This document shows positions 1 through 63,391 of a stretch of DNA of 64,000 nucleotides, one piece after another. Each line of letters starts with the position of its first letter. Position 1 is the first letter of the stretch. Below the pieces are notes generated by a model. That model was not told the origin of the DNA. It saw only the letters and a list, made by a program, of their open reading frames with translations, and did not search any database. The DNA is from a virus: the IMG/VR virus record IMGVR_UViG_3300045988_128133; one strand, given 5' to 3'. The translations under genes were made by a program, and so were the position numbers.

Positions 1-158
1 ACTCATTAACACTCAATAAAAATTTGTACCAATCTTACTTTGTTCCATCTTGTTCGGAACCCACGGAACCCATTGCCTCCAAGGAACTTACGTAACCTCC
101 GAACCTTGTTGTTCCATCGTTCACCATGTAAGAAGTTTCAAGTTAGAACACAATTCTC

Positions 159-164
159 TTGACA
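159..164 (+). promoter_or_regulatory. sigma70-like promoter: TTGACA(159-164)-17 nt-TAAGGT(182-187)
   Basis: The -35/-10 hexamers have 17-nt spacing. The predicted TSS is ~194-195, immediately at ATG 195, so the first gene may be leaderless. Confidence 0.4.
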
Positions 165-194
165 CTTGGGTCTCTCTGTGCTAAGGTCCCATCG

Positions 195-944
195 ATGACA
201 ACAAATCAATCAATCGACCCGTTCGGCCACTATCGGCAGTGGCTCTTCGCCGATTATCTCAATCAGAAGCACCCCATCCGTAAGCCCCGGCGCAAGACGG
301 GCCCGCTTCAACGGCTGACAGATATTGTATCTACGGAACCCGTGGCTCCCCTCAACGAGGAATTATACCACCTCATATTCCTCTCCCGGCCACAACCTCA
401 GTTGTTTACCCGCGAAGCCCTCACCGAACTCTATGCTACATTGGGAGGGGATGCAAGCCCCGCCTGCATGGATTTTATTCTCACTCACTTCTATTATAAG
501 CTGGAGAGCCCTGGTCTCCATCCAAACCTTGCTCCCCGTTACACGGCAAACGACATGGCTCACGACTACTCCCATTATGTTTCTCTCAGCCTCTCAGGCC
601 GACTGAACAAGGACCTTCTCAGGGCGGGCTGTGCCGTGATTGAGGCGCGCGCCCTGCCAGGACCAAAGGCCTTCAGCCACCGCCATTTGTGGGCCTGGGG
701 GTCGGGAGCGCAGGCGGTCTCTCTGCTCTACCTGCTGGACCGGAATCGGGATAACCCCCGCAACAGGTCTATCGACAGTCTCACCTTCGGGTTGGGACAT
801 CTTCCGAACTCCAGCAGGGTCACGCTTCGCACTATCCTGCAAGGCCTTGAACGGGACAGGTATGTTACCCGCACCGGACGGCACGCCAACCGTTCCATCT
901 ATCTTCTCAACCCCAATAGCATCGTATTCTCTTACGTAGACTAA
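195..944 (+). CDS. hypothetical protein (start chosen at ATG 195 inside ORF 159..944)
   Basis: Long ORF in the track. The TTG at 159 overlaps the -35 box, so the ATG at 195 (MTTNQS...) is preferred. No recognisable motif. Confidence 0.45.
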   Translation: MTTNQSIDPFGHYRQWLFADYLNQKHPIRKPRRKTGPLQRLTDIVSTEPVAPLNEELYHLIFLSRPQPQLFTREALTELYATLGGDASPACMDFILTHFYYKLESPGLHPNLAPRYTANDMAHDYSHYVSLSLSGRLNKDLLRAGCAVIEARALPGPKAFSHRHLWAWGSGAQAVSLLYLLDRNRDNPRNRSIDSLTFGLGHLPNSSRVTLRTILQGLERDRYVTRTGRHANRSIYLLNPNSIVFSYVD

Positions 945-955
945 ATCATACGACA

Positions 956-3820
956 ATGACTACATCCAGCCAAACCGCATTCACGCTTACAGCCCTATCC
1001 GAACGCCAGCTGTTCGATTCCCCCATACCTCTCACCAAACACGGTTCCTGCAACTACACTTCCCGTCTTTCGCTTGGTGAAATCATCAACTTCCTGCACG
1101 GGGATATTACACCTCAGCTGTTGAGTGCCAGCCAGTTGTCTTCCCTCATCCAGGTTCAGAACGGGGAACTCTCTTTGGATAGCGTTCCAGCTTCCTACCG
1201 CTCCCTGTACGAGAAGTGGTCCCGGAACTGGGCTTCGCCCGATAACCGGGATAAGGATAAGCCGCTTCCTGTTAAGGCGGCACTCCCTGCTATCGTTCCC
1301 TCCATCCGCATCCTCAACTCCCGCAACAACCTGCTCCCGGACTACCAGAGTCAGTCCGTCAAACGCCTCATTAACATCCTGCCCGACCTGTGGGAGCATA
1401 CGGGTATCTTCGGGATTGACATCGACCGGGGCAAGGATGGGAATAGCGATGACCCCGCAGAGCTTCTTGCCATGGCACGGGAGAAGCTCGCCACTTTGCC
1501 GGGGTTCGTCTTCGCCTACACCAGCCCGAACAAGGGGATTAAGGCTTTCTTCCGCGCAAGCGATGAGATTGTCTACTACCTCAACAATCCGAAGAGCGTG
1601 GATTCCCCGGAACCCGTGGAATCCGAGATACAGGCTCGCAAGGTATTCCATGAGGCAGTATATGAGGAACTGGTCCGGCAGATTGCAGAGGTGGCCCATG
1701 TCGAGATGGACCGTAAGTGCAGTGATATTGCCCGGTTGCAGTTCCTGTATCGAGGGGAATATATCGCACCCGCCGAGGGTACATCCTCCGTATTTACCAT
1801 TGAAAACATGGAGAAGTTCTTCCGTGAGGCTATGGAGCGCGGAGTCAGTTCCTATATTGCGGATAACCTCCTTTCCCCAACTGAACCGCTCCCGCCACTA
1901 CTGCTGGAGTTCGCCCAGTGGCTCGATTTGCAGGGCCGCCCCAAAGAAGCGGAGACTATCCGCAACATGAAGCCGGGCGTAGATAAGCAGGGTACTTATA
2001 TCCGTACAGCATACTGCCCCTGCTGTGAAGGCATATGCACTGGCAAGAGGGGGGAAGATGACCTGGGCCTCTACATCCCGGCAGGGGACCCGGCCCGTTC
2101 CCGATTCACCTGCTTCCATGATACCTGTAGTAAGGAAAGCGATACCGCGAAGCGGCACCCGGGATTCCGCTCCATGGCTCAGCTCTTCTATGACTTCAGG
2201 ACCAGCAGGGTGCGCCGTCGCGCCGAAACTGCTACCGCCGTTGTTTCTACGGGACACCCTGACCTGGACAGGTTGTACAATCCACCTCAAGTCGTGCTGG
2301 ATGCCCTTAAGGGACGCATGGACCTTGCTTCCGGTTCTGCTCTGGATATTAAGGACCCGGAATCCGTGGCTTCCATGGACTTCCCGGTTACAAAGGAGAA
2401 GTCCTCCTCTATCCCGGTTACTGCTCTCAATATTAAGGCGTTAATGAATCATCTGAACCTGGTCCCCATTCATAATAAGGTTGCTCAGACAACTCTGGTT
2501 ATCGACTCCTCCACCAATAAGGCATATACTCTTGCAGGCGGATTGACGGGACCCCTGACGGACTTCTGGGTATCTTACCTCGACAGGTCAGCCAAGTCGG
2601 CACCTACTCAGAACGAGATTAACACAGTGATTACTAACGCGGCTTATCAGAACCTCTACCACCCGATTGCAACACTGACCCGCTTGCGCCCCTGGGATGG
2701 CGAGGACCGTCTTTCCGCGTATAATGCCACATTAACTCTCGACCCAGCCCGCACCCCCGCTGGTTGGGAACCCGCCGCCTGGCTCGATTATGTACTCCGT
2801 ACCTGGCTCTACACCCTATACGGGAGGCTTGAAGGTCACATTAAGGGCTCCCGCAAGCTTCTTGATTCCTATTGCCCCATCCTTATCGGACCCCAGGGCT
2901 GTGGTAAGACGACGTGGTGTGACCAGCTGTTCTGGCCATTTGACGGTTGCTACTCTTCCCGCATGGCTACGGATGCCAAGGACTTGGCCCGACAGAAGGG
3001 TACGCTGGTCGCTATCCAGCTGAATGAAATTGACAAACTTCTGTCTGACCGCGAACAAAGTTCCCAGCTCAAGGACACGCTGGACAACTTTGCCGAGTTT
3101 GTCCGTTTCGCTTTCGCTAAGGAACCGAGCATGGTCTATCCGTGTGCCAGCTTTATCGGAAGCACCAATGAGAACCACCCCCTGTCCGATGTGACTGGGA
3201 ACCGACGCTTCTCCCTCCTGTACGTCAAGTCTGCACACGACGACGCTCGCCTGGACTACGCGGCTCGCGCCAGTCTGGACCTTCAACAGATTTGGGCACA
3301 GATTCGTGAAGAGTACAACCGGGAGGCTCCAAGGCTCTCAGACCGCGTAGGCCTGGTGGTTAAGATGTCTAAGGAAATCAATGATACTTATGGTATTATG
3401 GAGAGCCCTGAAGCCGCTTACGCATGTCGGCTCCGCTATGTGGACTGGGTACAAGATACAGATATTAACGGAGACCCCCTGTGGAAGCATACCTATCCCC
3501 ACATGAAGTGTTCCTCCAATCTGCTCAACGCCCTGGCCCAGATTGACCAGACGGGAGTCCCATCTATCAACCCACCGAGGGTGGATATCAAGCTGACGAA
3601 AGCCGCAATCCGAGATTTCTCTTCCGCTCTCATCAAGCTGTATGGACCTAACGCCGCAGAAGCCAAGCAGAAGGTAGGTGAGACACGGGCTCGCCGCATG
3701 CCATATCTGCTGGTAGAGGACTGGATTAAGTGGGCCAGCAAGGAGACTAAGGAACGCTGGTACAACAAGTTCCCCGAATGGAGGGAGCAAGACGAACAAA
3801 AAACGGAAATTATGTTATAA
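956..3820 (+). CDS. primase-helicase: N-terminal AEP/PrimPol-like domain, Cys/His zinc ribbon, C-terminal D5-like SF3 helicase
   Basis: AEP motif I-like FGIDID (hhhDhD). Cys cluster CPCCEGICTG...CFHDTC. Walker A GPQGCGKT, Walker B-like AIQLNEID and SF3 motif C GSTN in a 954-aa ORF. Confidence 0.65.
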   Translation: MTTSSQTAFTLTALSERQLFDSPIPLTKHGSCNYTSRLSLGEIINFLHGDITPQLLSASQLSSLIQVQNGELSLDSVPASYRSLYEKWSRNWASPDNRDKDKPLPVKAALPAIVPSIRILNSRNNLLPDYQSQSVKRLINILPDLWEHTGIFGIDIDRGKDGNSDDPAELLAMAREKLATLPGFVFAYTSPNKGIKAFFRASDEIVYYLNNPKSVDSPEPVESEIQARKVFHEAVYEELVRQIAEVAHVEMDRKCSDIARLQFLYRGEYIAPAEGTSSVFTIENMEKFFREAMERGVSSYIADNLLSPTEPLPPLLLEFAQWLDLQGRPKEAETIRNMKPGVDKQGTYIRTAYCPCCEGICTGKRGEDDLGLYIPAGDPARSRFTCFHDTCSKESDTAKRHPGFRSMAQLFYDFRTSRVRRRAETATAVVSTGHPDLDRLYNPPQVVLDALKGRMDLASGSALDIKDPESVASMDFPVTKEKSSSIPVTALNIKALMNHLNLVPIHNKVAQTTLVIDSSTNKAYTLAGGLTGPLTDFWVSYLDRSAKSAPTQNEINTVITNAAYQNLYHPIATLTRLRPWDGEDRLSAYNATLTLDPARTPAGWEPAAWLDYVLRTWLYTLYGRLEGHIKGSRKLLDSYCPILIGPQGCGKTTWCDQLFWPFDGCYSSRMATDAKDLARQKGTLVAIQLNEIDKLLSDREQSSQLKDTLDNFAEFVRFAFAKEPSMVYPCASFIGSTNENHPLSDVTGNRRFSLLYVKSAHDDARLDYAARASLDLQQIWAQIREEYNREAPRLSDRVGLVVKMSKEINDTYGIMESPEAAYACRLRYVDWVQDTDINGDPLWKHTYPHMKCSSNLLNALAQIDQTGVPSINPPRVDIKLTKAAIRDFSSALIKLYGPNAAEAKQKVGETRARRMPYLLVEDWIKWASKETKERWYNKFPEWREQDEQKTEIML

Positions 3821-3827
3821 TTTTTTC

Positions 3828-3942: not shown

Positions 3943-4341
3943 ATGAAGACAACCAACGAAAACGAATCCCTCCTGAATGAGCTGACCCAGCTCGAAGCGG
4001 ACCTCAGCAATCAGGTCAAGGAAGCTGAGCAGAAGCTCAAGTCACTGCGTGCCAACCATGCGCGTATCTCCAAGCTCATCAACCTCTTGAATGGTTTGGG
4101 CAATCTCATCAATCAGGACCAGAACAAGGTTCATGTAACGGAAGCCGCCCGCCCCGGCTATAGCCGCAACGGCAAGAAACTGGGCAGGCCGAGCAATGAA
4201 CGTCTCGCCAACTTGAAGGCTCAGAACGCCAATATGCAGGAACGCTTCGCGCTGTCCCAGAAGCGTGACCAGCTGAACAAGGCCATTGACTCCCTTGATT
4301 GGATTATCGACATGCAGGAAGCCGAGGAAGCCATGTACTAA
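3943..4341 (+). CDS. hypothetical coiled-coil protein
   Basis: 132-aa ORF with heptad-like leucine-rich sequence (LKSLRANHARISKLINLLNGLGNLI). No catalytic motif. Confidence 0.5.
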   Translation: MKTTNENESLLNELTQLEADLSNQVKEAEQKLKSLRANHARISKLINLLNGLGNLINQDQNKVHVTEAARPGYSRNGKKLGRPSNERLANLKAQNANMQERFALSQKRDQLNKAIDSLDWIIDMQEAEEAMY

Positions 4342-5592: not shown

Positions 5593-7490
5593 TGGATAAT
5601 ACATTCTCACTGCCGAAGATTCCGGGCTACGAAATGGAAATCACGGATGACCAGACAAAGCTGACGGGCGATACTCTGGCCATTGACTTCGAAACGTTTT
5701 ACGAAGGGGATTACTCCATGACCTGCATGGATGCCCGGTCCTACTGCACCCACGAAAAGTTTGACGCGTACATCATGTCGGCGTATGACGGCAAGCACTG
5801 CTGGGTAGGTCATCCCAAGGATTTCAACTGGGCAGAGACTACCAAGGGCAAAACCCTCGTGTCCTTTAACGCCAGTTTCGACTATGCCGTTTACCTGTTC
5901 GGCCTGAAAGCCCCAGGCTGTACCGGAACCCCCGGAACCCCCGGATTCCGTACTCCCTTCAACGCATGGGTATGTTCACGCGCCGCGGCCAACTACCTGT
6001 CCATATATGGCGCACTATCAAAGATTGTGGCCAAGATATGGGGCATTGAGATTAGCAAGGAGGTACGAGCCAAAGCTGAGGGCGTGGACTTCCGAACCCT
6101 TGACGTAATCCCCGACGATATGAAGGAATACGTGGCAGGCGACTCCTACTACTGCCTTGCCGTCTGGGATAAGTTCGAACGCTTCTGGCCCGACTACGAA
6201 CGCGAGTGCTGGCTCAATACCTGCATGATGGGATGGAGGGGAGTACCTACCAACCGTGAGGCTATTGAAGAGGGATTGGAAATCCTGAACGAAGCGAGGG
6301 AGCAGTACAAGGAAGCCATCCCGCTGGAGAAGAAACTCTCCATTCCCCAACTCCGTAAAGCCTGTGCGGACCTGAACATCCCACCGCCGGAGACTACCAG
6401 CAAGAACAGCGACAAGTTCACGGACTGGCTCGAACAGTATGGAAAACTCGTTCCCTGGGTTTCCCTCATTGGCAAGTATCGAAGCGTCAACCGTCTCATC
6501 TCCCTGACCGAGCGCATGCTTTCCCGTGTCTATACCGACCACGAAGGCATTGACCGAATCCCTTACACGCTCACCTATTGCGGTGCGAGTACGGGACGCT
6601 GGACGGCAGGTGGTGACAAATTAAACTTGCAACAGCTTAACCGTGATAGTGTTATGGGATTCAACCAGCGCGAGCTAATACAAACTCCAGAGAACTATAA
6701 ACTGGTGGTATGTGACTGGGCAGGTATCGAAGCGCGTCTCACCGCATGGCTCTGCGGACAGGAGAAAATTCTTGAAACGCTTCGTGCCGGGGAAAAGGAT
6801 ATCTATGCCGCTAACGCGAAGGGCTGGGGCCTCATCCCCACATCCGTCAAGGACTTCAAACAATACTGCAAGGAAACTCCGGGTCAGGAAAACCTCCGTC
6901 AGCATGTGAAGGCTGGGGTGCTTGCCTGTGGTTTTAGTGCTGGGTGGTCAGCTATCCAACGGGCGAACCCCGGTATGGACCGGGACCAGTGCCAGGCCAT
7001 TGTCGATATGTACCGAAGCCGAAGCCCCGAAGTGGTTGCATGGTGGCGCGAGCTTGACGCACTGGCCGCTCGTGGCTACCGGACTCCCTCCCACAGTTTC
7101 GCTCTCGCCCTGCCCTCTGGCCGGAAGCTCTATTATCGTAACTGCTACAAGAAGCTTATCCAGCCCAAGGATGGCCGTCGCCCCTATTTTGCCACCTGTG
7201 TCGATTTCGGCTACAAGTCCTCCATTGTCAATACTAACCTATTGAGCAACAACAACATCCAGTCCATTGCCCGCGACCTGATGGTCCGTGCCTTCAACCG
7301 TCTCTGCAAGGAATTGCCCGGTGCCGCCCCCTGCCTTCTTGTCCACGACGAGGCGGTGGTGATGGTTCCCGCGGATAAAGCGGAAGAGTACGCCCAGCGG
7401 ATTGAGGATATTATGGAAGATACGCCTGACTGGGCAAACACCCTCCCTCTCCTCGCTGAACCTGAAATCATGGATAAGTACAGAAAATGA
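5592..7490 (+). CDS. DNA polymerase, family A, with 3'-5' exonuclease motif
   Basis: Exo I-like AIDFETF. Pol motif A VVCDWAGIEARL (DxxxxExR). Motif B-like RQHVKAGVLACGFSAGW. Motif C LLVHDEAVV. Confidence 0.8.
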   Translation: MDNTFSLPKIPGYEMEITDDQTKLTGDTLAIDFETFYEGDYSMTCMDARSYCTHEKFDAYIMSAYDGKHCWVGHPKDFNWAETTKGKTLVSFNASFDYAVYLFGLKAPGCTGTPGTPGFRTPFNAWVCSRAAANYLSIYGALSKIVAKIWGIEISKEVRAKAEGVDFRTLDVIPDDMKEYVAGDSYYCLAVWDKFERFWPDYERECWLNTCMMGWRGVPTNREAIEEGLEILNEAREQYKEAIPLEKKLSIPQLRKACADLNIPPPETTSKNSDKFTDWLEQYGKLVPWVSLIGKYRSVNRLISLTERMLSRVYTDHEGIDRIPYTLTYCGASTGRWTAGGDKLNLQQLNRDSVMGFNQRELIQTPENYKLVVCDWAGIEARLTAWLCGQEKILETLRAGEKDIYAANAKGWGLIPTSVKDFKQYCKETPGQENLRQHVKAGVLACGFSAGWSAIQRANPGMDRDQCQAIVDMYRSRSPEVVAWWRELDALAARGYRTPSHSFALALPSGRKLYYRNCYKKLIQPKDGRRPYFATCVDFGYKSSIVNTNLLSNNNIQSIARDLMVRAFNRLCKELPGAAPCLLVHDEAVVMVPADKAEEYAQRIEDIMEDTPDWANTLPLLAEPEIMDKYRK

Positions 7491-8851
7491 GCAATCCTCT
7501 TAAACCATTCCCACCGCAGGTGGAGTGCATTGACGCTATGGTCAAGGCGATTCGCGCCCACGGATTCGTCGTCAACAAATCATGCACGGGTACGGGTAAA
7601 ACCCTGACCACGATTGAGACGGCCCGCATCCTAGAGCGTAAGCCCCTCATCGTCTGTCCGGCCATTGTTGTTACCCAGTGGAAGCGCGCCATGGAGGCGC
7701 AGGGTGTAGTTGATGCGGGCATCTATTCCTGGGAGAAAATCCGTATGGGTAACACACCGTTCTACTCAAAACCCGCACGCCTCACCCGCAACCGGATTGC
7801 CTACGGCCGGTGGTCCCTGCCCGAAGATGCCGTCCTTGTTCTGGATGAAAGCCACAAGGCCAAGACCTATCGGAGCCAGAGCAACATCATGGCATTGTCG
7901 GCGGCAGTCCAGAAGATTCCCACCATCATGCTTTCGGCCACCCCGTTCATTACGCCGCTGGATATGAGTGTCCCCGCCACCTATGCCGGATGGATTAAAG
8001 ACCCCCGTATCGGTTTCTGGATGTGGGCCAGACAGCAGGGATGTACCGAATCTTTTTGGGGTGGGTTGGAATTTAAGTTATCCACTAGAACTCAATCCCT
8101 TATGGAGAACCTGAAACGCAAGCTGTTCGATGCGGGCGTTATGACGGAGATTGACAAGGAAAAGCTTGACACTTTCTTCCCGAAGAATAGAATCGAATAT
8201 CTGTCCGTTGACGTGGACGTGAAGGGTATGAACAAGATTAAGGCATTGCAGAAAGCTCTGACCAGACTGGACAACGCCTGGGACGAATCTATTGAACGCG
8301 CCAATGAGAAAGGTATTGAGCTTCCTGCTGTTGTAGAATTGCTTCGCCTTCGCCAGCAGTCGGAGCTTGCCAAACTTCCCACCATGGCAGAGAAGGCAGT
8401 TGAACTGTTGGAGAGCGGATATAGCGTTGCCATCTTTGTCTCCTTCATCGACAGCATCCTTACCCTTTCGGACCTCATTAACCAGAAGGCCGGAGAGGTG
8501 GTTCAGTATTCCGAAATTAGCGGACAGCTGACGGGAACCCAGAGACAAGCAGAAGTCGATAAGTTTCAATCGAATACGACACGGCTCGCTCTCGTTCAGA
8601 TTAGTGCGGGCGGGACCGGAGTGTCCCTTCATGATACGGACGGCAACTATCCCCGCGCGGCTCTCATCTCCCCGGACTACTCCATTCAGAACCTGTTGCA
8701 GGCCCAAGGCCGCATTGCCCGACTGGGTACGAAATCCTCCACGATTCAATATATCGTGACTGCCGCGGACACTGTGGAAGAAAAAATCATCAAAGCACTC
8801 AACACTAAGGAAATCTGTTTTAACTCACTGACACACAATGCAAACGAATAA
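7487..8851 (+). CDS. SF2 (SNF2/DEAH-like) helicase
   Basis: Motif I CTGTGKT. Motif II VLDESHKAK. Motif VI QAQGRIARLGT. Confidence 0.75.
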   Translation: MSNPLKPFPPQVECIDAMVKAIRAHGFVVNKSCTGTGKTLTTIETARILERKPLIVCPAIVVTQWKRAMEAQGVVDAGIYSWEKIRMGNTPFYSKPARLTRNRIAYGRWSLPEDAVLVLDESHKAKTYRSQSNIMALSAAVQKIPTIMLSATPFITPLDMSVPATYAGWIKDPRIGFWMWARQQGCTESFWGGLEFKLSTRTQSLMENLKRKLFDAGVMTEIDKEKLDTFFPKNRIEYLSVDVDVKGMNKIKALQKALTRLDNAWDESIERANEKGIELPAVVELLRLRQQSELAKLPTMAEKAVELLESGYSVAIFVSFIDSILTLSDLINQKAGEVVQYSEISGQLTGTQRQAEVDKFQSNTTRLALVQISAGGTGVSLHDTDGNYPRAALISPDYSIQNLLQAQGRIARLGTKSSTIQYIVTAADTVEEKIIKALNTKEICFNSLTHNANE

Positions 8852-18624: not shown

Positions 18625-18937
18625 AATCTGGCCCATCTATTCCGAAGAAGCCTTCAGGTCGAACGTTAAAACACAAGGCACTCTGTTCGACCTCTTAAAC
18701 GACCCGGTGATGCAGGAAGCCCTTCTCATCATCCAATCTAAATTAAACGTCTCGCTTCCATCAACCATGGAAGCGGCGGCACTCGCCGGAGCTTATGCGG
18801 CTGGAGCTAAAGCGGTCATTGCCGGACTGCACACTCTCGCCCAACCCATGGAATCCATGGAAGCCCCGGTATCTGCGGTTCCTCACGAAACCCTTGAACG
18901 AAACGCTTGGATTAACTCACTCAAACCTAATCTCTAA
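18617..18937 (+). CDS. hypothetical protein
   Basis: 106-aa ORF coupled to the portal stop. Confidence 0.45.
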   Translation: MSKIWPIYSEEAFRSNVKTQGTLFDLLNDPVMQEALLIIQSKLNVSLPSTMEAAALAGAYAAGAKAVIAGLHTLAQPMESMEAPVSAVPHETLERNAWINSLKPNL

Positions 18938-25681: not shown

Positions 25682-26170
25682 ATGAACAACGCAGAGATTC
25701 AAATCCAATTCCCCGAACCTGGTATATGGACGGTGATGAGCATGTCCGCGGTTTATGCGGATGCCGATGGTTTCAACCGGGTAGATACCTATACACAAGA
25801 CACTCTCCCTCCTGAACAGATACCAGCCCTGGAAGCCGCGATTACTGCGATAGCCACGCTGGAAGAAGACTGGAGGGCAAGGCAGGTCTGGGCCCGACTG
25901 GTTACGGAAACCATAGTAACCGCGGAATCCGTGGAATCCGTGGAAACCATTCTTCTCACTGTCGAGGCTATCAACAAAAACGGAGGGACTCGAATGTTCC
26001 GGCCATCCGAATACGAACAATTTCGGCTGACGGACACAGGTTCCCTGTCCTTCTTTAAATACTTCACAACTAAACAACCATCAACCATTTATGGAGATAC
26101 AGGAACTTCTGAACCTACTCCTGCTCCTGAAGCGGTAAAGAAGGTTCGAAAGACTAGAAAGTCCAAGTAA
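25682..26170 (+). CDS. hypothetical protein
   Basis: 162-aa ORF. Confidence 0.45.
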   Translation: MNNAEIQIQFPEPGIWTVMSMSAVYADADGFNRVDTYTQDTLPPEQIPALEAAITAIATLEEDWRARQVWARLVTETIVTAESVESVETILLTVEAINKNGGTRMFRPSEYEQFRLTDTGSLSFFKYFTTKQPSTIYGDTGTSEPTPAPEAVKKVRKTRKSK

Positions 26171-28718: not shown

Positions 28719-28736
28719 AAAGGAGAAAGGAGAATA

Positions 28737-54168: not shown

Positions 54169-54734
54169 TGATTTATAAGAGCTTTATAGATTAAACGTTG
54201 TTGATATTTTTGAACAAAGTGTTGGATGTTTAGAATGAAATCCGCAGGGACTGCGACTAGAGTATATTTTCTAGCGTATCTTCGTAGCAGATACCGCACC
54301 ATTCCATTTGTTTTTCCTACGATTTCTTTAGCTTTAACAGCATCTCCCACCAGTGTCACTACCATGGAAATATGGTGCTGAACACCGTTAAGATAATAAC
54401 CGACCGAAAAGGCGTTGCTGTCTGCCTTCCACATTATAGCACACTCTGAGTCCTCACCGTAGCGAGGACCTTTGGATGCCTTCGGTCTATCACTGGCGAG
54501 AATTGCGCCATAGTTTAATTGACTGCTGGTTAAGGGTTTGGCACTGGATAGGTCCGTATCTACCCACTTGTCGTGTTTAGGGTATAAGTCTGTTATAATA
54601 CGCCTGCGGGCTTCAAGCTGGTCTCTCCCCAGGCGCACACCCCATGCGTGGTATGTCTCTTTAATTCGCCGATAGGAATCCGGGGTATTATTGAACAGCT
54701 GATAGCGGCCAGGGCCGTAGTATAGGCGAGGCAT
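54150..54734 (-). CDS. hypothetical protein
   Basis: 194-aa ORF. Confidence 0.45.
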   Translation of the reverse strand: MPRLYYGPGRYQLFNNTPDSYRRIKETYHAWGVRLGRDQLEARRRIITDLYPKHDKWVDTDLSSAKPLTSSQLNYGAILASDRPKASKGPRYGEDSECAIMWKADSNAFSVGYYLNGVQHHISMVVTLVGDAVKAKEIVGKTNGMVRYLLRRYARKYTLVAVPADFILNIQHFVQKYQQRLIYKALINQCKNTK

Positions 54735-55405
54735 TAGTCCAGATATATAGCTGAGTTATGGATGCGATTTGGGCAGTGGGGGATATCCTCGAATGCCCAG
54801 CTTAAGCCGTATTTGTAGCTCATGGCTATCTTCAATGTAGTGAAGAGACTCCGTATCTGAGGCTGAGCCGCGCCATCAAGACGCATACGGAAGATATGCC
54901 TCCACTCCCGGAGGTTAGCAGTCATAGCAATGGTTGTGGCTGTGCAGTTAGGGAGAAGACCGCGGGCTTCTTCAGGGGGCAGTCCTTCTTCACTAATCAG
55001 CTCAGCATAAGTGTACACCAGAGATAGGCACTTACCTTTGAACAGCCTGACAACTGTGGAAGGGGTTGAAGGGTCTCCAAAGAACTGAGGCTTAACCAGT
55101 TGAATAATTCCCTTCTTGTTGTAGTTCACGTACCTCTGAGACTCCATAGAGAAGGCGCAGTGGCGGTGACGTACCAGCTGGTGAGTTACACTCCTGTCCG
55201 TAGTTAGAACGGCAGAGATATTGATGTGTTCCAGTACGCTTTCATGTCCCCTATGGAGAATTTTAGACAGGAAAGCTACCGGGTCTCCTTTAGGTTCGCT
55301 TTTGTAGCAGGTGCGTCCGGCTTCTTCTGCCATAGATATGGCCTCAGAAACAGTTTCCTTACTAAGGGGGAGTCTTACCTGCTGGTCAATCCATTCGATG
55401 TCCAT
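54734..55405 (-). CDS. thyX: flavin-dependent thymidylate synthase
   Basis: ThyX signature RHRHCAFSMES (RHR-x7-S). The size of 223 aa is typical. Confidence 0.75.
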   Translation of the reverse strand: MDIEWIDQQVRLPLSKETVSEAISMAEEAGRTCYKSEPKGDPVAFLSKILHRGHESVLEHINISAVLTTDRSVTHQLVRHRHCAFSMESQRYVNYNKKGIIQLVKPQFFGDPSTPSTVVRLFKGKCLSLVYTYAELISEEGLPPEEARGLLPNCTATTIAMTANLREWRHIFRMRLDGAAQPQIRSLFTTLKIAMSYKYGLSWAFEDIPHCPNRIHNSAIYLD

Positions 55406-55417: not shown

Positions 55418-55735
55418 TTAAGAGTTCTTTAATTCATTTTCCATTCTTCTCAATGCTGTTCTGGATAAGAGTTCTTTAACTCTTTCCTCAGCATCTTCAA
55501 TGCTGGTGTAAGTCCAACCGTAAGTTCCCCATTCTTCAGGGCTTGGCAAGTATTCATCCCCAGCTTTAGTACCAGTGAAGTCATTGTCTTTTGTTCTGGT
55601 TCGGACAACGACCACTTCATACCTCCGGGTCTTCCCTTCGGGGTGGGTTTGTGAATAAAGGGCTACGTGTTTTTCCCTCCTTATCAGAGTACATGTGAAG
55701 GGTTTGCGGATGTATTCGTCAGGAATCTTTTTCAT
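55418..55735 (-). CDS. hypothetical protein
   Basis: 105-aa ORF. Confidence 0.45.
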   Translation of the reverse strand: MKKIPDEYIRKPFTCTLIRREKHVALYSQTHPEGKTRRYEVVVVRTRTKDNDFTGTKAGDEYLPSPEEWGTYGWTYTSIEDAEERVKELLSRTALRRMENELKNS

Positions 55736-57707
55736 TTTGTTTGAGCATGTTTAGGAATTCTTTCTCACTAATCACCGGGACTTTATGGAGTGCCGCAACC
55801 TTTTGCTTGTGTTCTCCGGGGGAGTCTCCGACAACTAGATAGCTGGTCTTTCTGGATATATTCTCCTTAACACTGCCACCCATCCGTTTTACCAGCATAG
55901 CATACACAGAGCGGGGCTGGTTCAGCGTTCCCGTGATAACGAAGTTAATGCCTTTCAGGGTCTGGTTCTCTGGAAGGTTGCCCTTAACATCAACAATATC
56001 TTCACGCAGAACTGCGTAGTACATATCATTCCATGCAGGGTGCTGTTCAATCCAGTTCAGGATTTCCTCCGTCATTGCGCTTCCGAAACCTTCAATGTTC
56101 CCCTTCTTCAAATCGTCAGGGAAGAGGGTAAAGAAAGCTGACAGGGAAGAATATCTCCAGGACAGGTTTACGGCTCTGGTTTTGCCTATGTGGGGAATAC
56201 CCATTGCCGTAATCCATTGCTCCAGTTTAGCGTCCTTTCTCCGCTTGTCAAGACATTCCTTCAACCTTTTAGTCCCCGGTATCTGTGTAATCATGTCATC
56301 ATAATCTCCAAGCATCAGAGGGAGCCACGGGTACTGGGCATCCGAAGGTATCTCTGCACACAGGTCAAGGCTGTCGTCAACGTATTCACGGAACCGGGCA
56401 ACGAGGTTGCGGGCTACCGCAGGCCCCATGCCGTCAATGTCCAGAGCGTTCTTCCCACAGGCGTAAACGAGACTAGCCGCCATGCGTCCCCAGCAGTTGG
56501 GGTTAGGGCATACGAGGTTATCCGCTTCCAGACCTTTCTGCACGATGAGAGAGTGCTGACATTCCGGGCAGGATGCAGGGGACTTCGTACTAGTATTTGC
56601 AAGCTGAACCACCTTTCGGATAAAGGGAATGATTTCTCCTGCTTTCACCACTTCAACCACGTCCCCGACATGATAGAGCTGGGCGTTGGAGTAGTTGGAA
56701 AGCGTGGCACGCCGGACTTCGGTACCTCCAATGATAACTGGGTCAAACTCTGCCACTGGGGTCAATACTCCGGTTCTTCCTACCTGCCAGACAATCTTTC
56801 GGATGGTGGTATCTACCCCTCGCGGGTGGAACTTGAACGCAATAGCATCCTTCGGGTGATGAGCCGTAGGTTCTCCGGCCTCTTCAATATCCTGCAACGA
56901 AATCAGTTTAAGGACAAGGCCGTCCGTAGGATATTCCGTATCATACTGAAGTCCCTTTTGAAGAGCCTCCAGAAAATCCTGGGTAATTTCCCCATCAGTC
57001 AGGGGATTCCATATGCGTTGAGGGGGAACTACTCCGAACTGGCGTTCCATATAGACACCCGCATAAGCGCGAGATACGGGGGCTTCCATGTCGAAGGGCA
57101 TGAAACGGATAAGGAGGTCTTCCGCATTGAGGCGATTGTTCCTGAGCTGTCCCACAGCACAGGCCCGGAGATTAGAGTAGCCCATAGCCAGAGCTTTCGC
57201 TTCATTCTCCACAGCTACCACCACTTCACCGCGAATGGTACCAGAGAAGGGGGAGTCCAACGCAAAGGCCGTATCGGGAAGGAAGGATTTAAGCCGGGAC
57301 ATGGGAACAATTTCTCCACGGGTTCCGTTGCCACGGGTGACACCGCGGATGAGCAAACCATCCTCATAATAGAGAACGAGAGTTAGCCCATCGTATTTAG
57401 GCTCAATGTACACCTTGCGTCCATTTATCCAGCTGTTAAGCTGGGCCACCCCGCTACCATCCTCCCCCTCATGAATCTTGTCGAGGGAGAGGATGCGGTG
57501 GGTATGGACTACAGTCTTCGCTCCCCGCTGTGCGTCGTCACCGAGGGAACAGAGAAGCGGGGACTCAGGGTTACGGCTTCGGAGTTCAGCAATAAGTGCA
57601 TCGTATTCACAATCGGGAACAACAGATAACCCTTCCCCATAATACTTCTGGTTCAGGAATTCAATCCGCTTTTCGAGTTCTGGTGTACTGTAGTCTTGAG
57701 GTTTCAT
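55719..57707 (-). CDS. ligA: NAD-dependent DNA ligase
   Basis: Adenylation motif EPKYDGLTL (KxDG). Zn finger CPECQH...CPNPNC. C-terminal BRCT-like end with GDSPGEHKQK. Confidence 0.8.
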   Translation of the reverse strand: MKPQDYSTPELEKRIEFLNQKYYGEGLSVVPDCEYDALIAELRSRNPESPLLCSLGDDAQRGAKTVVHTHRILSLDKIHEGEDGSGVAQLNSWINGRKVYIEPKYDGLTLVLYYEDGLLIRGVTRGNGTRGEIVPMSRLKSFLPDTAFALDSPFSGTIRGEVVVAVENEAKALAMGYSNLRACAVGQLRNNRLNAEDLLIRFMPFDMEAPVSRAYAGVYMERQFGVVPPQRIWNPLTDGEITQDFLEALQKGLQYDTEYPTDGLVLKLISLQDIEEAGEPTAHHPKDAIAFKFHPRGVDTTIRKIVWQVGRTGVLTPVAEFDPVIIGGTEVRRATLSNYSNAQLYHVGDVVEVVKAGEIIPFIRKVVQLANTSTKSPASCPECQHSLIVQKGLEADNLVCPNPNCWGRMAASLVYACGKNALDIDGMGPAVARNLVARFREYVDDSLDLCAEIPSDAQYPWLPLMLGDYDDMITQIPGTKRLKECLDKRRKDAKLEQWITAMGIPHIGKTRAVNLSWRYSSLSAFFTLFPDDLKKGNIEGFGSAMTEEILNWIEQHPAWNDMYYAVLREDIVDVKGNLPENQTLKGINFVITGTLNQPRSVYAMLVKRMGGSVKENISRKTSYLVVGDSPGEHKQKVAALHKVPVISEKEFLNMLKQNEKDS

Positions 57708-57947: not shown

Positions 57948-58514
57948 TTACCAGGTGGTCATAACAGACACATTATGTCCCTGCCAGTGGTGATATTTAA
58001 CCGCCCGGCCCTGCTCATCCCGCTCTATCACGGATATATGGGTTCCATGGGTGTTGGTTAGCATATCCAAATCGGAGACCTTGAGTTTATCGAACCCCTT
58101 GATGCAGGTGCCACCGACAAAGATAAGGCATTGAGTATAAACATCATCCACTTTTGTGGGACGTTCGGGGGAGTCGCAGGATGAGAGGCATACCACGGCA
58201 ATCAGACCCGCCACGAGGGCCAGAACCAGTGTGAGAATCCTATGGGTTAAATGCTTCATATATTTTCGTTGTCTTCTCCGTTTGAGTTTAAGCTGTTTCT
58301 TAATTCTTTTCCGATTGTTCTTTACCAGACAACGTATGTTGTCGGGCAGAGGTTTAAGGGAAGAGCGCATCCTTTCCAGTTCATAGAAAAACAGGAGGAC
58401 ATACCCGCAGGTAGCGCATACTATTTGTGGATTGGAACCATCAGTAACCTGATAGGGGCCTCCGCAAACAGGGCATACCGGAGTATTAGGCGAGGATGAT
58501 TTTGGACTTGGCAT
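57948..58514 (-). CDS. zinc-ribbon / basic linker / TM protein (anti-sigma-like topology). Alternatively two genes, with an internal lipoprotein-like start MKHLTH...LSSC at 58259
   Basis: N-terminal CPVCGG...CATCGY, Lys/Arg-rich stretch, then hydrophobic LTLVLALVAGLIAVVCLSSC with a lipobox-like LSSC. Confidence 0.4.
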   Translation of the reverse strand: MPSPKSSSPNTPVCPVCGGPYQVTDGSNPQIVCATCGYVLLFFYELERMRSSLKPLPDNIRCLVKNNRKRIKKQLKLKRRRQRKYMKHLTHRILTLVLALVAGLIAVVCLSSCDSPERPTKVDDVYTQCLIFVGGTCIKGFDKLKVSDLDMLTNTHGTHISVIERDEQGRAVKYHHWQGHNVSVMTTW

Positions 58515-59133
58515 CTTCTACTTGCTGTTGCAGAACTTCTTTACTGATGAAGGAGTATTTGGAAAGCCTCAACAGCTTCATGCTTACGACGTTGGACAGT
58601 ACGGTGAAATACCTGAACGCGTTAATCTTTCCTTCACCCTCACCCACGAGGTCAGGCTTGTTCAGGGTGGTGTAGGAAATGAGCATATGCACTGCCATGA
58701 CCATGATAATGGCACGAACCATTGTGTTCGTATCAGTGTACATAGCGCATGCCTGTCCCGCATTCTCAATCTCCTGCGTGAACATGATAGAATCCCGGAG
58801 GTTGGACACCAGTTCAATAGCCTTCTCCAGCATGAACTTGACACCATGAGTTGTGGGAAGTTCTATACCTGGGAAAATAGAAGCCGCATGTTCCCCAATC
58901 TCCGTAGCCTTTTCAGCCACGGCTTCCGCGGATGCATCGGGTGCCAGACCGAAGGTGGGAATGGATTCCCAGGCCAGTTCCATTTCCTCTTTGAGCTTAA
59001 TGGATTCCGGTTCCTTCAACAGGGCGGCCACTGCTTCTTCAACTGCGTCGAGCTTGATTTCTTTAGTAGATTCGTTCATTTGTGTAGGTTGGTTAATGGG
59101 TTTAAATGATACCGTGGGTTCCGTGGATGTCAA
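58486..59133 (-). CDS. hypothetical protein with internal TM segment
   Basis: 215-aa ORF with a TTG start. Its N-terminal STEPTV is encoded by the dispersed motif. Confidence 0.4.
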   Translation of the reverse strand: MTSTEPTVSFKPINQPTQMNESTKEIKLDAVEEAVAALLKEPESIKLKEEMELAWESIPTFGLAPDASAEAVAEKATEIGEHAASIFPGIELPTTHGVKFMLEKAIELVSNLRDSIMFTQEIENAGQACAMYTDTNTMVRAIIMVMAVHMLISYTTLNKPDLVGEGEGKINAFRYFTVLSNVVSMKLLRLSKYSFISKEVLQQQVEDAKSKIILA

Positions 59134-60767: not shown

Positions 60768-61376
60768 TTAACGGAAAACTACCTTAATTTCAGTCACATC
60801 TGAATCACCCTTCTTCTCAACCACCGTGCTAAACTTCACCATGCAGGGGAGGAACATCTTTTCGGCCATGCGGCGAGCCTTAATAGAGTTCAGCTTCTGA
60901 GCCTGTGGTTCGTCGGCGTTCAGTACCCTGAATTTCATGTAGGTCAGGCTTTGGTCTACCATGAAGTCAACGGCTTGAATCTCATTTGCAATTCTGAATG
61001 CCACATCCTGCCAGTTCTGGGTTATCACCTCCATGAAGGTACGTGCCCACTGCACGGCATCCTTGAGTGACAGGGAAGCCACTTCCAAAATCGTCAGCAC
61101 CTGCCCATTCCACTTCATCTTGTGAATACGGGTAATGTACGAAGTAAGGGAAATGCGTTGCAGTTCAACGGCATAAGGTCTCCGATACGGTTTGATGAAT
61201 ACCGAGCCTTCACCATTCCAAAGTTCCGGCTTCTCAATGCGTACAGACTCTTCATCCTTATGTAGGAGCAGGGTGTTAGGCTGAATTTTATTTACATAGG
61301 TGGTCAATCTAATCCATTCAGGGCGAGAAAGTTCTTCACGGCTCTTGCATTCAGTATTTACGAAAAAGGCTTTCAT
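60768..61376 (-). CDS. hypothetical protein
   Basis: 202-aa ORF. Confidence 0.45.
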   Translation of the reverse strand: MKAFFVNTECKSREELSRPEWIRLTTYVNKIQPNTLLLHKDEESVRIEKPELWNGEGSVFIKPYRRPYAVELQRISLTSYITRIHKMKWNGQVLTILEVASLSLKDAVQWARTFMEVITQNWQDVAFRIANEIQAVDFMVDQSLTYMKFRVLNADEPQAQKLNSIKARRMAEKMFLPCMVKFSTVVEKKGDSDVTEIKVVFR

Positions 61377-61478
61377 GATTTATAGCGTTCTATGAGGTTT
61401 CTAGTATTTTGGTTGATGTTAATTTAGGTTAATTATCTTTTTTCTTTTGGATTGTTAGGGTAGCCTAATTTGTTAGTT

Positions 61479-62555
61479 CTATCTAAGGGAAGAAGTATCA
61501 AGCACCGGGTGCACTGGGTTAGTCTCCGAGTTGACAAGATAGGAAGAATGGGAAGACATGAGGACGTGAAGCCGTTGATGCACCGCCTGATAGTGGCGGT
61601 GAGCATCTAACCATTCCGTCAAGAGACTGCGTAGGTACCGCTCACTTTTAGCACTAGTCAAAGCCGCTTCCACCTTTTCAAGCTCGCTTTTAATACGGTT
61701 CTCCTGCTCTTTCAAGACTTGCGCCAATTCCGCTTGCGCCCCTTCATCCAGTCGGAAGCTGACGGAACCACGGCATACATTGAAGGCACTTGCAGGGAAA
61801 GAAATAAGCTCAATAGCTTCCGCATCCGTTGAACAGTCTTCGCACCTTACCCAGACTTGCACGGCTAATCTCTCCATATCCACAAGAACATCAAGGCCAT
61901 GTTTGTCATGCAGATTGCGAAGGGCCTCAATTTCGCCGGACGCACGGTTGAATAAATGTTCAGCAAGGTAGGGTGTGAAGCGATACCCTGCTAATGCCTT
62001 CAAATCAAGGCGTAATGCGGTCAGGAGATACTGGGAAACTGTCAAAGCTATCCGGCGATTGATTAGATAAGACTGTGTGCGCTTGATATCATGGAGAATA
62101 GACCACGCCGCATTGTGACATGCGGCCCCTTCATCAGGAGAGAGCAGGGGAAGAAAAGTACTCATGGCTCCAGCGCAAGCATTATCCACCTGCTTTAAAT
62201 GGTTGTCTATTTGGTCATACCCGTTCACGCTCAAGAAGTTGAACAGGTTTGCATGGGGAGAAGCGGCTAAAGTTTTTCCGTTGGTAATATGAACTCCGTA
62301 CGTTGGCATGAAATGGGAGGTTGCCAGCGTTACGCCGTTTCTCCGGCGCATTTGCGCCCCTTCTGCGTCATACGTCCAATTATAATCTGCATAGTTTATC
62401 CCATTGAACAGGAAAGCTTTCTGGATATCGTCCGGTTCCGGGTTGTCCAAATATTTCACAGGTCGAAGGCAATCCAAATCACCGCAGAATTGAATGAGAG
62501 AAAGGGTGTTGTCCTTGAAACTCTTGACAAGTTTAGTTGCGGAAATGTTTGTCAT
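61479..62555 (-). CDS. hypothetical protein
   Basis: 358-aa ORF. Confidence 0.45.
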   Translation of the reverse strand: MTNISATKLVKSFKDNTLSLIQFCGDLDCLRPVKYLDNPEPDDIQKAFLFNGINYADYNWTYDAEGAQMRRRNGVTLATSHFMPTYGVHITNGKTLAASPHANLFNFLSVNGYDQIDNHLKQVDNACAGAMSTFLPLLSPDEGAACHNAAWSILHDIKRTQSYLINRRIALTVSQYLLTALRLDLKALAGYRFTPYLAEHLFNRASGEIEALRNLHDKHGLDVLVDMERLAVQVWVRCEDCSTDAEAIELISFPASAFNVCRGSVSFRLDEGAQAELAQVLKEQENRIKSELEKVEAALTSAKSERYLRSLLTEWLDAHRHYQAVHQRLHVLMSSHSSYLVNSETNPVHPVLDTSSLR

Positions 62556-62590
62556 ACTTAAATAATTGCTTAGGGTTAATGAGTTAGGAA

Positions 62591-63391
62591 TTAGCGGTTG
62601 TACTTAGGAAGGGCGGCGTTGTAGTCCGTGCGCTTGTAGTGATATGTTTTCGGTGACGTAATGGACGCAATAAGGGCATCCTGCTTCACCAGTTCACGCT
62701 TTACTTTAATTGTAGATTGCACAATCTTTCGCAAGATGCTTTCTTTCTGCATGTTGTGGAGAGATGTAAGAGCACTTTCCGCCTTAGATTCCAGATATTC
62801 CACAGTTGCGTTTAGCTTGTCAATCACGGGTTGCATGTCATCTACGCTAACAATGCGCCCAGTTTCCGGACTCACTAACACCTTAAAATCCAACGGGAAA
62901 GAAATATGTTCCTCCAATCCTAGGCTTCCGTGGAATCGGAGGCAATGCAAATCGTAATTGCTGAAATCTACATAGCCTTTAATTGTACGGAGAGTCTCTT
63001 TTTTCCGGGCATCATCCAAAGAGTCGGAGAAGCAAGCCTTTATGGCATTGTCCAACCGGGCGTTGTAGACCTTACCCGCAAAACTGGGAAGCTTAGCAAT
63101 TAGCCGCCTGATGAAGTCAATGGAGATATTGGCGGCGTAATAATAATTAAAAAGTTTCACTCGTGTAACATTCAAATCATCCAAAAAGGTACGGATTGAT
63201 GCACCCAGTTCCCGCCAGTCATCTTTACCGAGGCCTTCCCCCGGTTCACCGTTGAACTGGTTCCAGACTTCTTCCCGAACCGTTTTAATAGCGGCATCAC
63301 TTTTCGTCATGTATGCAATCGTTTCGTTATGTGTGGTATATTTCATTTTCTTATTCTTTCTATTGGTTTTGTTAATATCCTTAAATATCAA
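62591..63391 (-). CDS. hypothetical protein
   Basis: 266-aa ORF. Confidence 0.45.
   Translation of the reverse strand: MIFKDINKTNRKNKKMKYTTHNETIAYMTKSDAAIKTVREEVWNQFNGEPGEGLGKDDWRELGASIRTFLDDLNVTRVKLFNYYYAANISIDFIRRLIAKLPSFAGKVYNARLDNAIKACFSDSLDDARKKETLRTIKGYVDFSNYDLHCLRFHGSLGLEEHISFPLDFKVLVSPETGRIVSVDDMQPVIDKLNATVEYLESKAESALTSLHNMQKESILRKIVQSTIKVKRELVKQDALIASITSPKTYHYKRTDYNAALPKYNR

Follow-up and report, generated by a model that had tools for sequence, protein, structure and literature searches.

This study concerns a 9-bp tandem repeat that recurs in the genes of an uncultured phage, which we analyzed in a 64,000-nt stretch of IMG/VR record IMGVR_UViG_3300045988_128133 (hereafter the window; coordinates without a label are window positions). 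Exact-protein look-up led to the complete contig of 71,872 bp (ENA ERZ1689595; loci L232 and L234), on which window position 1 corresponds to L232 9046 and position 64000 to L232 1228. A rightward block encodes replication and morphogenesis proteins together with a giant open reading frame (ORF) of 3199 amino acids (42643-52242), and a leftward block comprises 26 genes. The 7.8 kb outside the window contain the rest of the leftward block and an almost gene-free control region of 2.8 kb (L232 ~6400-9240), which separates the two diverging blocks immediately upstream of where the window starts.

The ~50% G+C and the sigma-70-type promoters of the phage would fit a proteobacterial host. The phage is unclassified and lacks close kin in GenBank: nucleotide comparison with GenBank phages gave no match, the portal-region protein was likewise without one, and the DNA polymerase is only ~25% identical to those of known phages. 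Neither the giant ORF nor the early genes matched PHROG or Pfam, scans for tRNAs found no tRNA gene anywhere in the phage genome, and a literature search for the repeat sequence strings returned nothing relevant.

A tandem 9-bp repeat throughout the window

A preliminary description of the window had reported a strand-asymmetric family of 9-nt motifs, embedded in more than 30 ORFs and co-oriented with transcription. We found the motif at essentially all of the coordinates that it gave, and collected 36 arrays of 2-7 units each (126 units in total) with the general form (GGNNNCCNN)n, i.e. CCRYGG hexamers at a 9-bp phase (Table 1). By this array definition ~21 genes carry the repeat, or ~25 when the single-unit sites of the description are included, so that the count of ORFs had been set too high. 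The excess over chance was borne out. Relative to dinucleotide shuffles of the window sequence, GGAAYCCRYGG had 28 matches on both strands versus 0.49 expected, CCRYGGAAY had 34 versus 5.0, and three-unit arrays (three successive GGNNNCCNN units with at least 11 of 12 skeleton bases) numbered 48 versus 0.1. The most frequent 10- and 11-mers of the entire window are all members of the repeat family. The motif is not an assembly artefact, since the arrays recur in independent assemblies (ENA ERZ1689595 and ERZ1689355) and in several IMG/VR contigs.

Over the 36 arrays the consensus is GG-(A)(A/T)(T/C)-CC-(A/G/C)(C/T). The hexamer is mostly CCACGG or CCGTGG with an A/T-rich triplet between copies, which equals tandem GGAAYCC-RY, and neighboring GGAAYCC/GGRTTCC elements are nearly always 9 nt apart in either relative orientation when all copies are listed. 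The 9-nt period is therefore genuine, as first described, and the proposed slippage by one unit was also seen: a relative with 97% identity lacks 9 nt at 27390-27416. Every unit is quasi-palindromic (GGAWTCC + RY, with CCRYGG palindromic too). Since GGATTCC is the reverse complement of GGAATCC and the hexamer a palindrome, an array amounts to a series of quasi-palindromes that overlap; its sole real orientation marks are AC versus GT in the hexamer and AAY versus RTT in the triplet. The GANTC sequence (CcrM/HinfI) is contained only in units with AAT or ATT. DnaA boxes were considered, since GGAATCCAC contains ATCCAC, and were rejected by inspection: the RY position and the triplet vary beyond DnaA-box tolerance.

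Orientation was evaluated against a second null, in which synonymous codons were shuffled inside each gene with proteins and codon usage unchanged. In the mRNA sense, GGN3CCACGGN3CC occurred 16 times versus 0.78 in these shuffles (20-fold) and GGN3CCGTGGN3CC 11 times versus 0.34 (32-fold), while GGAAYCC and GGRTTCC were enriched 2.5-fold and 2.8-fold, respectively. Because both orientations are similarly enriched, the apparent co-orientation with transcription is a by-product of codon and amino-acid usage, and the raw mRNA-sense excess of GGAAYCC reflects the use of GAA, TCC and ACG codons and of the corresponding peptides. Neither the strand asymmetry nor the co-orientation proposed earlier thus survives a codon-aware null, and the mirrored minus-strand population reduces to two or three weak sites in a strongly depleted leftward block. 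The analogies to mycobacteriophage stoperators and to Chi or FtsK-orienting polar sequences (KOPS) lose their defining orientation feature; a Chi/KOPS-type polarity signal was rejected on this ground, the unit being quasi-palindromic without orientation-specific enrichment. A link to host restriction-modification of the DsaI/BtgI class had also been suggested, but CCACGG (54 versus 23.4 in synonymous shuffles) and CCGTGG (43 versus 24.4) are enriched rather than depleted, and we rejected restriction-site avoidance accordingly.

Constraint on the DNA of the arrays

The arrays occupy more than one reading frame, as the preliminary description had noted. The first G of the array falls on codon position 3 in 31 of the 36 arrays, on position 1 in five (one of which, 56-82, is the non-coding leader) and on position 2 in none. 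The major frame, xxG-GNN-NCC-NNG, encodes Glu/Asp, then Ser/Pro/Thr/Ala, then Thr/Val/Met, and the minor frame encodes Gly-X-Y; the resulting peptides resemble flexible linkers. Such a bias is expected if a DNA-level motif persists only where the encoded peptide is harmless. Synonymous-codon shuffles, in which the proteins are fixed, retained 10-20 times fewer matches than the real sequence: the sense 11-mer was observed 20 times versus 2.05, the antisense 11-mer 8 times versus 0.37, and three-unit arrays 49 times versus 2.3. A codon permutation null gave even fewer matches than the synonymous shuffle. Because synonymous shuffles lose most matches, the encoded peptides explain a small part of the signal.

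Related genomes were found by an IMG/VR scan with a two-unit 20-mer, which returned 111 stretches. About 60 of these derive from ~35 contigs of 35-72 kb, mostly of metagenome 3300045988, with 66-99% nucleotide identity to the window. The remaining contigs are unrelated and carry one long tandem array in one gene, i.e. ordinary peptide repeats. Tandem peptide-repeat genes of this kind (collagen-like Gly-X-Y and others) that contain (GGNNNCCNN)n share the nucleotide periodicity of the phage repeat but have a single long array in one gene and one frame, whereas the phage arrays are short and numerous, spread over many genes, two frames and non-coding sequence. Two further loci, L236 and L237, were retrieved via the primase-helicase protein and hence independently of the motif. 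The array sequences used in the conservation tests are phylogenetically related to one another, so that exact p-values are loose.

Within frame-2 arrays (25 distinct orthologous array sequences, with units split by position), the skeleton bases at third-codon positions, G1 and C7, were 87% and 82% identical, respectively, versus 55% for background third positions. In contrast, the non-skeleton first-codon positions N5 and N8 were 68-70% identical versus 84% for background. The normal order of constraint is inverted, with skeleton third positions above non-skeleton first positions, and the DNA skeleton is therefore what is kept. Where the amino acid was retained, the codon was identical in 68% of cases in arrays versus 50% outside, a pooled value driven by three arrays. 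Five arrays other than this pooled set gave synonymous codon retention of 87% in arrays versus 57% outside in L236 (p=0.001) and 94% versus 79% in L237 (p=0.02). Nucleotide differences followed the same pattern. Relative L097 differed by 1% in arrays versus 14.9% outside (pooled, with one array in a ~99%-identical mosaic segment), and its two arrays in ~84%-identical segments showed 1 difference in 54 nt; relative L031 differed by 8.9% in arrays versus 22.9% outside. Overall, the arrays are under purifying selection at the DNA level and not at the peptide level, which upholds the initial view that selection acts on the nucleotide sequence. The synonymous-shuffle excess, the skeleton third-codon conservation and the presence of two frames plus non-coding copies together led us to reject a peptide-repeat explanation.

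The family is also mobile in position. All relatives (~35 contigs) share the consensus, the AAY/RTT triplets and the AC/GT spacers; at ~70% identity few arrays are orthologous in position and most lie at non-orthologous places. At 5925, 23687 and 23825 the arrays align without gaps to orthologous, motif-free sequence of the same length, and such lineage-specific arrays arose in place by substitutions, including synonymous ones. In-frame insertion of miniature inverted-repeat transposable elements (MITEs) or Rickettsia palindromic elements (RPEs) was rejected on the basis of these gapless alignments. Whole-unit changes in copy number also occur, as in the 9-nt deletion at 27390-27416 in L060 and the unit-level differences at 36308 and 39252; slippage adds to turnover without explaining the repeat family. 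We observed mosaicism as well. Genomes L092, L004 and L237 are 89-99% identical to the phage over much of their length, but in the region of window 1-3824 their primase-helicase proteins are only 34-36% identical, which indicates that the initiator module was swapped with the repeat family unchanged. Recombination breakpoints near arrays showed no pattern in an informal look at the ends of high-scoring segment pairs.

The control region and a candidate initiator

The 7.8 kb beyond the window carry the same repeat, including its longest arrays. Five units of (GGTTCCCAC) at L232 6609-6662 are followed by a 38-nt core of alternating purine-pyrimidine (RY) and AT-rich sequence, and then by opposed CCGTGG-phased arrays that extend to 6825. 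Further control-region arrays lie at L232 6999-7020, 7400-7452 and 8308-8352, and 17-bp tandem repeats and a second RY/AT tract at 8940-9040. The same layout, in which sets of 4-7 CCACGG and 4-7 CCGTGG units face each other across a 38-50 nt RY/AT core, is present in three genomes (L232 6609-6825, L004 2838-2998 and L026/L237). The triplets of the control regions in the two other genomes differ (TTT/AAA and AAC) and the hexamer is identical, so that the constant part of the repeat is the hexamer together with its 9-bp phase. Opposed sets of short repeats flanking an AT-rich core are a hallmark of origin iterons in self-loading helicase replicons (SaPI/PICI/P4 type), and only the edge of this cluster, at 56-82, falls inside the window. 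On its architecture, we regard the control-region cluster as a probable replication origin.

Array density differs strongly between the two arms of the genome. By three measures, the control region (2.6 kb) has 9, 7 and 6 hits (2.3-3.5 per kb), the rightward block (52.3 kb) 47, 52 and 35 hits (0.7-1.0 per kb) and the leftward block (13.7 kb) 1, 0 and 0 hits (below 0.1 per kb). At the rightward density, 9-14 hits would be expected in the leftward block (P at most 1e-4), in which arrays are at least 10 times rarer; isolated short matches nevertheless show a slight excess in this block (2 versus 0.17). The leftward block is likewise empty of arrays in L237 and L004. The two-arm asymmetry is real. 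It could mean that the sites act within the rightward unit of transcription or replication, or that fast-turnover early genes had too little time to gain sites.

The replicon also encodes a candidate initiator of the Rep type, in which a helicase is joined to a primase. Residues 538-788 of the primase-helicase match 7PDS_A, the cryo-electron microscopy structure of Rep1 from Staphylococcus aureus pathogenicity island (SaPI) 1 on DNA, at E=1.6e-9 (phmmer), and its C-terminal ~190-194 residues are conserved. SaPI Reps are self-loading helicases as well as initiators, with a C-terminal winged helix that recognizes penta- or hexanucleotide iterons, and the SaPI origin has 6-12 iterons that flank an AT-rich region in equal halves, at least two of them per side pointing in opposite directions; SaPI5 has its primase fused to Rep (PMC9371898). 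The architecture of the phage control region fits this scheme point by point. Like the iterons of SaPIs and other phage-inducible chromosomal islands (PICIs), the phage repeat has 5-6 nt cores, 6-12 or more copies and opposed sets around a meltable core, with a primase-fused helicase-initiator encoded nearby. Unlike them, it is strictly phased at 9 bp with a semi-conserved A/T-rich triplet, its core is alternating purine-pyrimidine as well as AT-rich, and the putative origin lies ~3.3 kb upstream of the helicase gene, whereas the SaPI origin lies just downstream. The ~35 extra phage arrays in coding genes under DNA-level selection are not described for SaPIs. In the P4 alpha protein, primase, superfamily 3 (SF3) helicase and winged-helix origin binder follow one another in a single polypeptide (PMC2777425). 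The phage protein resembles it in joining primase and helicase with a putative origin-binding function. P4 iterons are 8-bp sequences found in both orientations at two non-coding loci, ori and the distant crr, whereas the phage repeat occurs at dozens of loci inside genes.

Because the intragenic runs match the repeats that flank the probable origin, the repeats are most likely binding sites for a phage protein. We give a probability of roughly 0.55 to the reading in which they are iteron-like double-stranded DNA sites, probably for the phage primase-helicase initiator, with accessory copies in genes. A sequence-specific DNA-binding protein was among the options raised at the outset and is the best reading of the repeat; which protein this is, and what the intragenic copies do, we infer. 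The primary sites would be the control-region arrays flanking the RY/AT core, where the primase-helicase would bind the hexamers, one DNA-binding domain per unit, and open the core. The ~35 intragenic arrays would be accessory copies, located where proteins tolerate them in linker-like segments, kept by purifying selection on the DNA and created and removed by substitution and one-unit slippage. As a best guess, they may recruit or retain the binder along the rightward block as distributed loading, titration or roadblock sites.

Several points count against this assignment. Family members with the same repeat have primase-helicases only 34-36% identical to one another. The C-terminal region of this protein, a putative winged helix, was modeled by AlphaFold with a predicted local distance difference test (pLDDT) score of 37, from one homologue only, and a PDB profile search of the region returned nothing relevant and no similarity to the P4 winged-helix domain. 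The origin is putative, being assigned from architecture alone. Intragenic copies by the dozen are not known from the SaPI or P4 systems, which restricts the analogy to the control-region arrays, and a role in origin binding alone does not predict the near-absence of arrays from the leftward block. The spacer dinucleotide in genes (AC/GT 31, CC/GG 11, AT 6, GC 6) is looser than at the putative origin. Finally, the palindrome at 32211-32237 acts like a selected palindrome with compensatory change, which hints at non-equivalent sites.

A bolder extension, which we hold only tentatively, is that the dozens of in-frame iteron arrays form a functional code, used by the primase-helicase or a partner as loading or re-loading sites and perhaps as tethering or roadblock sites. 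If so, sites inside genes would organize replication or the way in which it is coupled with middle and late transcription, and the synonymous bases of the skeleton would be more constrained than the encoded amino acids. This would represent a new genome-wide control mode for a lytic-type phage, with protein linkers shaped by a DNA-binding code. More generally, the known kind to which these sequences belong is that of iterons or dispersed operator-like sites. The unusual features are tandem 9-bp quasi-palindromes, independence of orientation, in-frame placement in ~21 genes where the codon-position constraint is inverted, and confinement to one arm. Binding by an initiator or regulator would extend origin logic of the SaPI/P4 type to a 72-kb phage with its own DNA polymerase, and would add a dispersed, gene-embedded set of sites that is stoperator-like but tandem, palindromic and in either orientation. 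It would also be a clear case in which, for more than 20 unrelated proteins, selection on DNA overrides the choice of codons and amino acids. The target (CCACGGNNN)n is directly testable against three candidate proteins, namely the primase-helicase, the helix-turn-helix (HTH)-like protein of 30915-31397 and the MarR-type protein of 31372-31728. The repeat is also a simple sequence signature by which to recognize the phage family and its origin in metagenomes.

Other readers of the repeat can be envisaged. Rather unlikely, in our view, is that the arrays are stoperator-like operator or roadblock sites for a phage regulator, encoded at 30915-31397 or 31372-31728, that controls the divergent promoters and times or silences the rightward block. 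This would account for arrays that are confined to the control region and rightward block and depleted in the leftward early block, and that in relatives flank the sigma-70-like promoters of the control region; CCACGG-N3-CCACGG also lies at or just upstream of the HTH-like gene, and the window does encode a MarR-type winged-helix protein. Precedent comes from Cluster A mycobacteriophages, whose stoperators lie inside genes too and resemble the phage repeat in having tens of short-site copies genome-wide, operator copies at the early promoter region and a group-conserved motif (PMC6550527). However, stoperators are single asymmetric sites with one orientation to transcription and are bound by the immunity repressor of a temperate phage, whereas the phage units are tandem (2-7 per array), 9-bp quasi-palindromic and enriched in both orientations. 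The stoperator site is 13-14 bp long. The MarR-type protein was the only such regulator recognized, and no integrase, partition gene or recognizable immunity repressor was found among the scanned or pre-annotated genes; many ORFs have no annotation. The MarR-like gene is absent or unrecognizable in most relatives that keep the motif, the 30915-31397 protein gave no Pfam or PHROG match, and the arrays showed no association with gene starts in a rough hand count, by which ~10 of 36 lie within 120 nt of a gene boundary versus ~10 expected. Small dimeric repressors offer a further comparison. The omega protein heptads of pSM19035 and the 8-bp metboxes of MetJ are contiguous 7-9 bp units, direct or inverted, in 2-10 copies, and the repressor reads each unit and polymerizes along the array. 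Those arrays are confined to promoters, whereas the phage arrays lie inside genes as well, and no ribbon-helix-helix protein was identified in the phage.

Non-protein and non-phage explanations appear weaker than a phage-encoded binder. Arrays could be a mutational product without binding function, generated by 9-nt slippage and by short-patch ectopic gene conversion or template switching among dispersed copies, and tolerated in acidic or Ser/Thr/Pro linkers. The one-unit indel in a 97%-identical genome, the six substitutions within 20 nt in a 96-99%-identical genome, the high positional turnover, the linker-like peptides and a frame bias consistent with protein-level filtering are all in keeping with this idea, which we nevertheless consider improbable. 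Slippage and conversion predict instability, and thus the better conservation of arrays than of their flanks, at skeleton third-codon positions and over 9-34% nucleotide divergence, counts against it; the units found in genes, mostly GGAATCC/GGAACCC, are not copied from those of the control region (GGTTCCCAC in this phage), and the opposed arrays around the RY/AT core and the leftward-block depletion would be left unexplained. A shade less probable still is a role for the host: one of its factors would read the repeat, or the repeat would imitate a signal of the host genome, for instance the site of a transposase or nucleoid protein. Among the matches listed, Oceanisphaera, Marinobacter and uncultured Gammaproteobacteria carry multi-copy intergenic elements of 150-340 bp bounded by GCCACGGAAYCCACGGAAYCCACGGAAAAA and its inverse, with the CCACGG ... 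CCGTGG polarity of the phage control region, and the promoters and base composition of the phage would suit such a host. The bacterial genome matches listed are, however, taxonomically scattered, the motif was seen in those bacteria only at element ends and not dispersed in genes, and one relative comes from a sample with prefix 7000000071, which we take to denote the Human Microbiome Project, where Oceanisphaera and Marinobacter are not expected. An element acting as RNA or as a hairpin (mRNA structure, a GGA-containing site for an RNA-binding protein, or cruciforms) is very improbable and, as a general explanation, already largely refuted. Self-complementary units do make some arrays perfect palindromes (32211-32237 and 48282-48297), and every unit has a GGA triplet. 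At 32211-32237, with 12-bp arms and a 3-nt loop, relatives show two complementary synonymous changes (G..C to C..G). Yet when triplet and spacer orientations were randomized inside each array and refolded, the real arrays were not more stable than the permuted versions (mean z +0.39), and 32211-32237 alone stood out, weakly (0.07 of permutations reach it). Many arrays are pure direct repeats, both orientations are equally enriched, and the largest arrays are non-coding and precede promoters. An Rfam scan gave nothing at the gathering threshold, its sole match being a sub-threshold MIR538 hit caused by a large inverted repeat. The RNA-level target sites mooted in the preliminary description are thus disfavored, and the absence of a hairpin bias in unit order and orientation fits a protein that reads each quasi-palindromic unit. 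The 32211-32237 palindrome itself may have an extra role as a hairpin or symmetric-dimer site.

Site catalogue and neighboring features

Table 1. Arrays, single sites and candidate binding proteins, in window coordinates.
Position	Feature	Context	Remark
56-82	array GGAACCCAC GGAACCCAT TGCCTCCAA	non-coding leader	L232 9101-9127; right-hand edge of 2.8-kb control region
335-352	2-unit array	in ORF 159-944	
956-3820 (+)	primase-helicase, 954 aa	BT4734-like_N and VapE-like domains	leading candidate binder
1600-1626	3-unit array, VDSPEPVESE	variable linker of primase-helicase	
2359-2394	4-unit array	primase-helicase gene	
4317-4334	2-unit array	C-terminus of ORF 3943-4341	kept in L092 and L237
5925-5951	3-unit array	DNA polymerase, Gly-X-Y frame (GTPGTPGFR)	kept in L236 and L237; equal length, other sequence in distant relatives
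9452-9487	4-unit array	exonuclease gene	kept in L236 and L237
9683-9709	3-unit array	exonuclease gene	kept in L236 and L237
11101-11127	3-unit array	N-terminus of RuvC-like resolvase, frame 0 (CDPGVHGAL)	conserved catalytic motif may partly explain it
18850-18894	5-unit array	C-terminal part of ORF 18617-18937	
19039-19092	6-unit array	N-terminal part of ORF 18947-20137	
23687-23713	3-unit array	ORF 23520-25676	near-identical peptide in relatives, 0/20 synonymous codons shared
23825-23869	5-unit array	ORF 23520-25676	lineage-specific
25906-25950	5-unit array TETIVTAESVESVETI	ORF 25682-26170	
27390-27416	3-unit array		one 9-nt unit deleted in 97%-identical L060
30237-30259	GAATCCACGGAATCCACGGAACC	ORF 29886-30602	previously described site, confirmed
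30915-31397 (+)	family-conserved protein, ~54% identity	HTH-like by eye only	alternative candidate binder
30959-30977	CCACGGAAACCACGGAAT	5' end of HTH-like gene, or upstream of alternative start 31014	CCACGG-N3-CCACGG kept in most relatives
31372-31728 (+)	MarR-type winged-helix protein	closest relatives only	weaker candidate binder
32211-32237	3-unit perfect palindrome CGGTACCCACGG-TTC-CCGTGGGTACCG	62 nt into ORF 32149-33186	kept in at least 25 relatives
34297-34314	2-unit array	frame 0 (GIHGTR)	
34746-34772	3-unit array		
35653-35679	weak 3-unit array	frame 0	
36037-36054	2-unit array	EPTDS	
36308-36361	6-unit array	linker of endolysin-like protein	20-nt patch with 6 differences from 96-99%-identical L053
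38321-38336	GAACCCACGGATTCCG, single site		previously described site, confirmed
39252-39278	3-unit array		variant arrays or 12-nt deletion at same place in relatives
40855-40890	4-unit array		synonymous sites kept in 76%-identical relatives (34/40 codons identical)
41671-41688	2-unit array, conserved		adjoining 15-nt insertion in relatives
41884-41943	array of at least 5 units	Pro/Ala/Thr-rich ORF 41459-42529	
42124-42141	2-unit GGCGGCCCC array		weakest likeness to repeat family
43407-43433, 43521-43538, 43716-43742, 43863-43889	four arrays	giant 3199-aa ORF	
45874-45889, 45939-45974	site and 4-unit array	giant ORF	
46416-46478	7-unit array TNEPTETTEAVAPTETTETA	giant ORF	
48282-48308	3-unit array incl. 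perfect 16-bp palindrome GGAATCCATGGATTCC		palindrome at 48282-48297
50475-50501	3-unit array GGAATCCAC GGATTCCGA GGATTCCTT		
51831-51884	6-unit array	near C-terminus of giant ORF	
57314-57343	weak site CCACGGGTTCCGTTGCCACGGGT	ligA, leftward block	very few sites in this block
58921-58947	weak array	leftward block	sole 3-unit array there
59111-59129	CCGTGGGTTCCGTGG	start of ORF 58486-59133	
62925-62940	weak two-unit site CTTCCGTGGAATCGGA		

The giant ORF carries 12 of the 36 arrays. The GC skew changes sign near 44 kb, inside this ORF, rather than at the strand switch at 53.6 kb. A separate, ordinary coding tandem repeat unrelated to the 9-nt family occurs in ORF 18947-20137, where a perfect EEGDDEKDT x3 (19190-19270) lies in a scaffold-like acidic coiled-coil protein.

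The gammaproteobacterial elements mentioned above are MITE-like, with terminal inverted repeats made of three CCACGGAAY units, the same 9-mer as in the phage. They were located at L157 2193-2532, at L161 5508-5680 and 6580-6770, and in L130, L142, L147, L149, L162, L164 and L185, and gave no Rfam match. The likeness may stem from the host lineage, from a DNA-binding domain of common type, or from coincidence.

The control region holds other repeated sequences. Five copies of a ~25-nt element, TGTCAAG(A/C)(A/G)AAA(T/A)CGAC(G/A)(C/T)GCGGC, lie on one strand within 730 bp of non-coding DNA (L232 7645-8375, 0.7-1.4 kb upstream of window position 1) versus 0.04 expected, and the window contains none that is convincing; possible roles are as promoters specific to the phage or as points where small RNA units begin. 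Alternating purine-pyrimidine tracts at L232 6662-6700 and 8940-9040 and at L004 2698-2765 and 2995-3036 may be Z-DNA-prone or easily melted. The 17-bp (x4) and 22-bp (x2) tandem repeats lie beside strong sigma-70-like promoters (TTGACA-16-TAAAAT, L004 3115).

In the leftward block we recognized genes for a flavin-dependent thymidylate synthase, ThyX (54734-55405), and an NAD-dependent DNA ligase (55719-57707). Three neighboring small ORFs at 28136-29234 appear, from their translations alone, to encode paralogous zinc-ribbon proteins (CPVCG ... FPP(A/L)MRV(H/W)PGD ... KWPW(Q/E)L).

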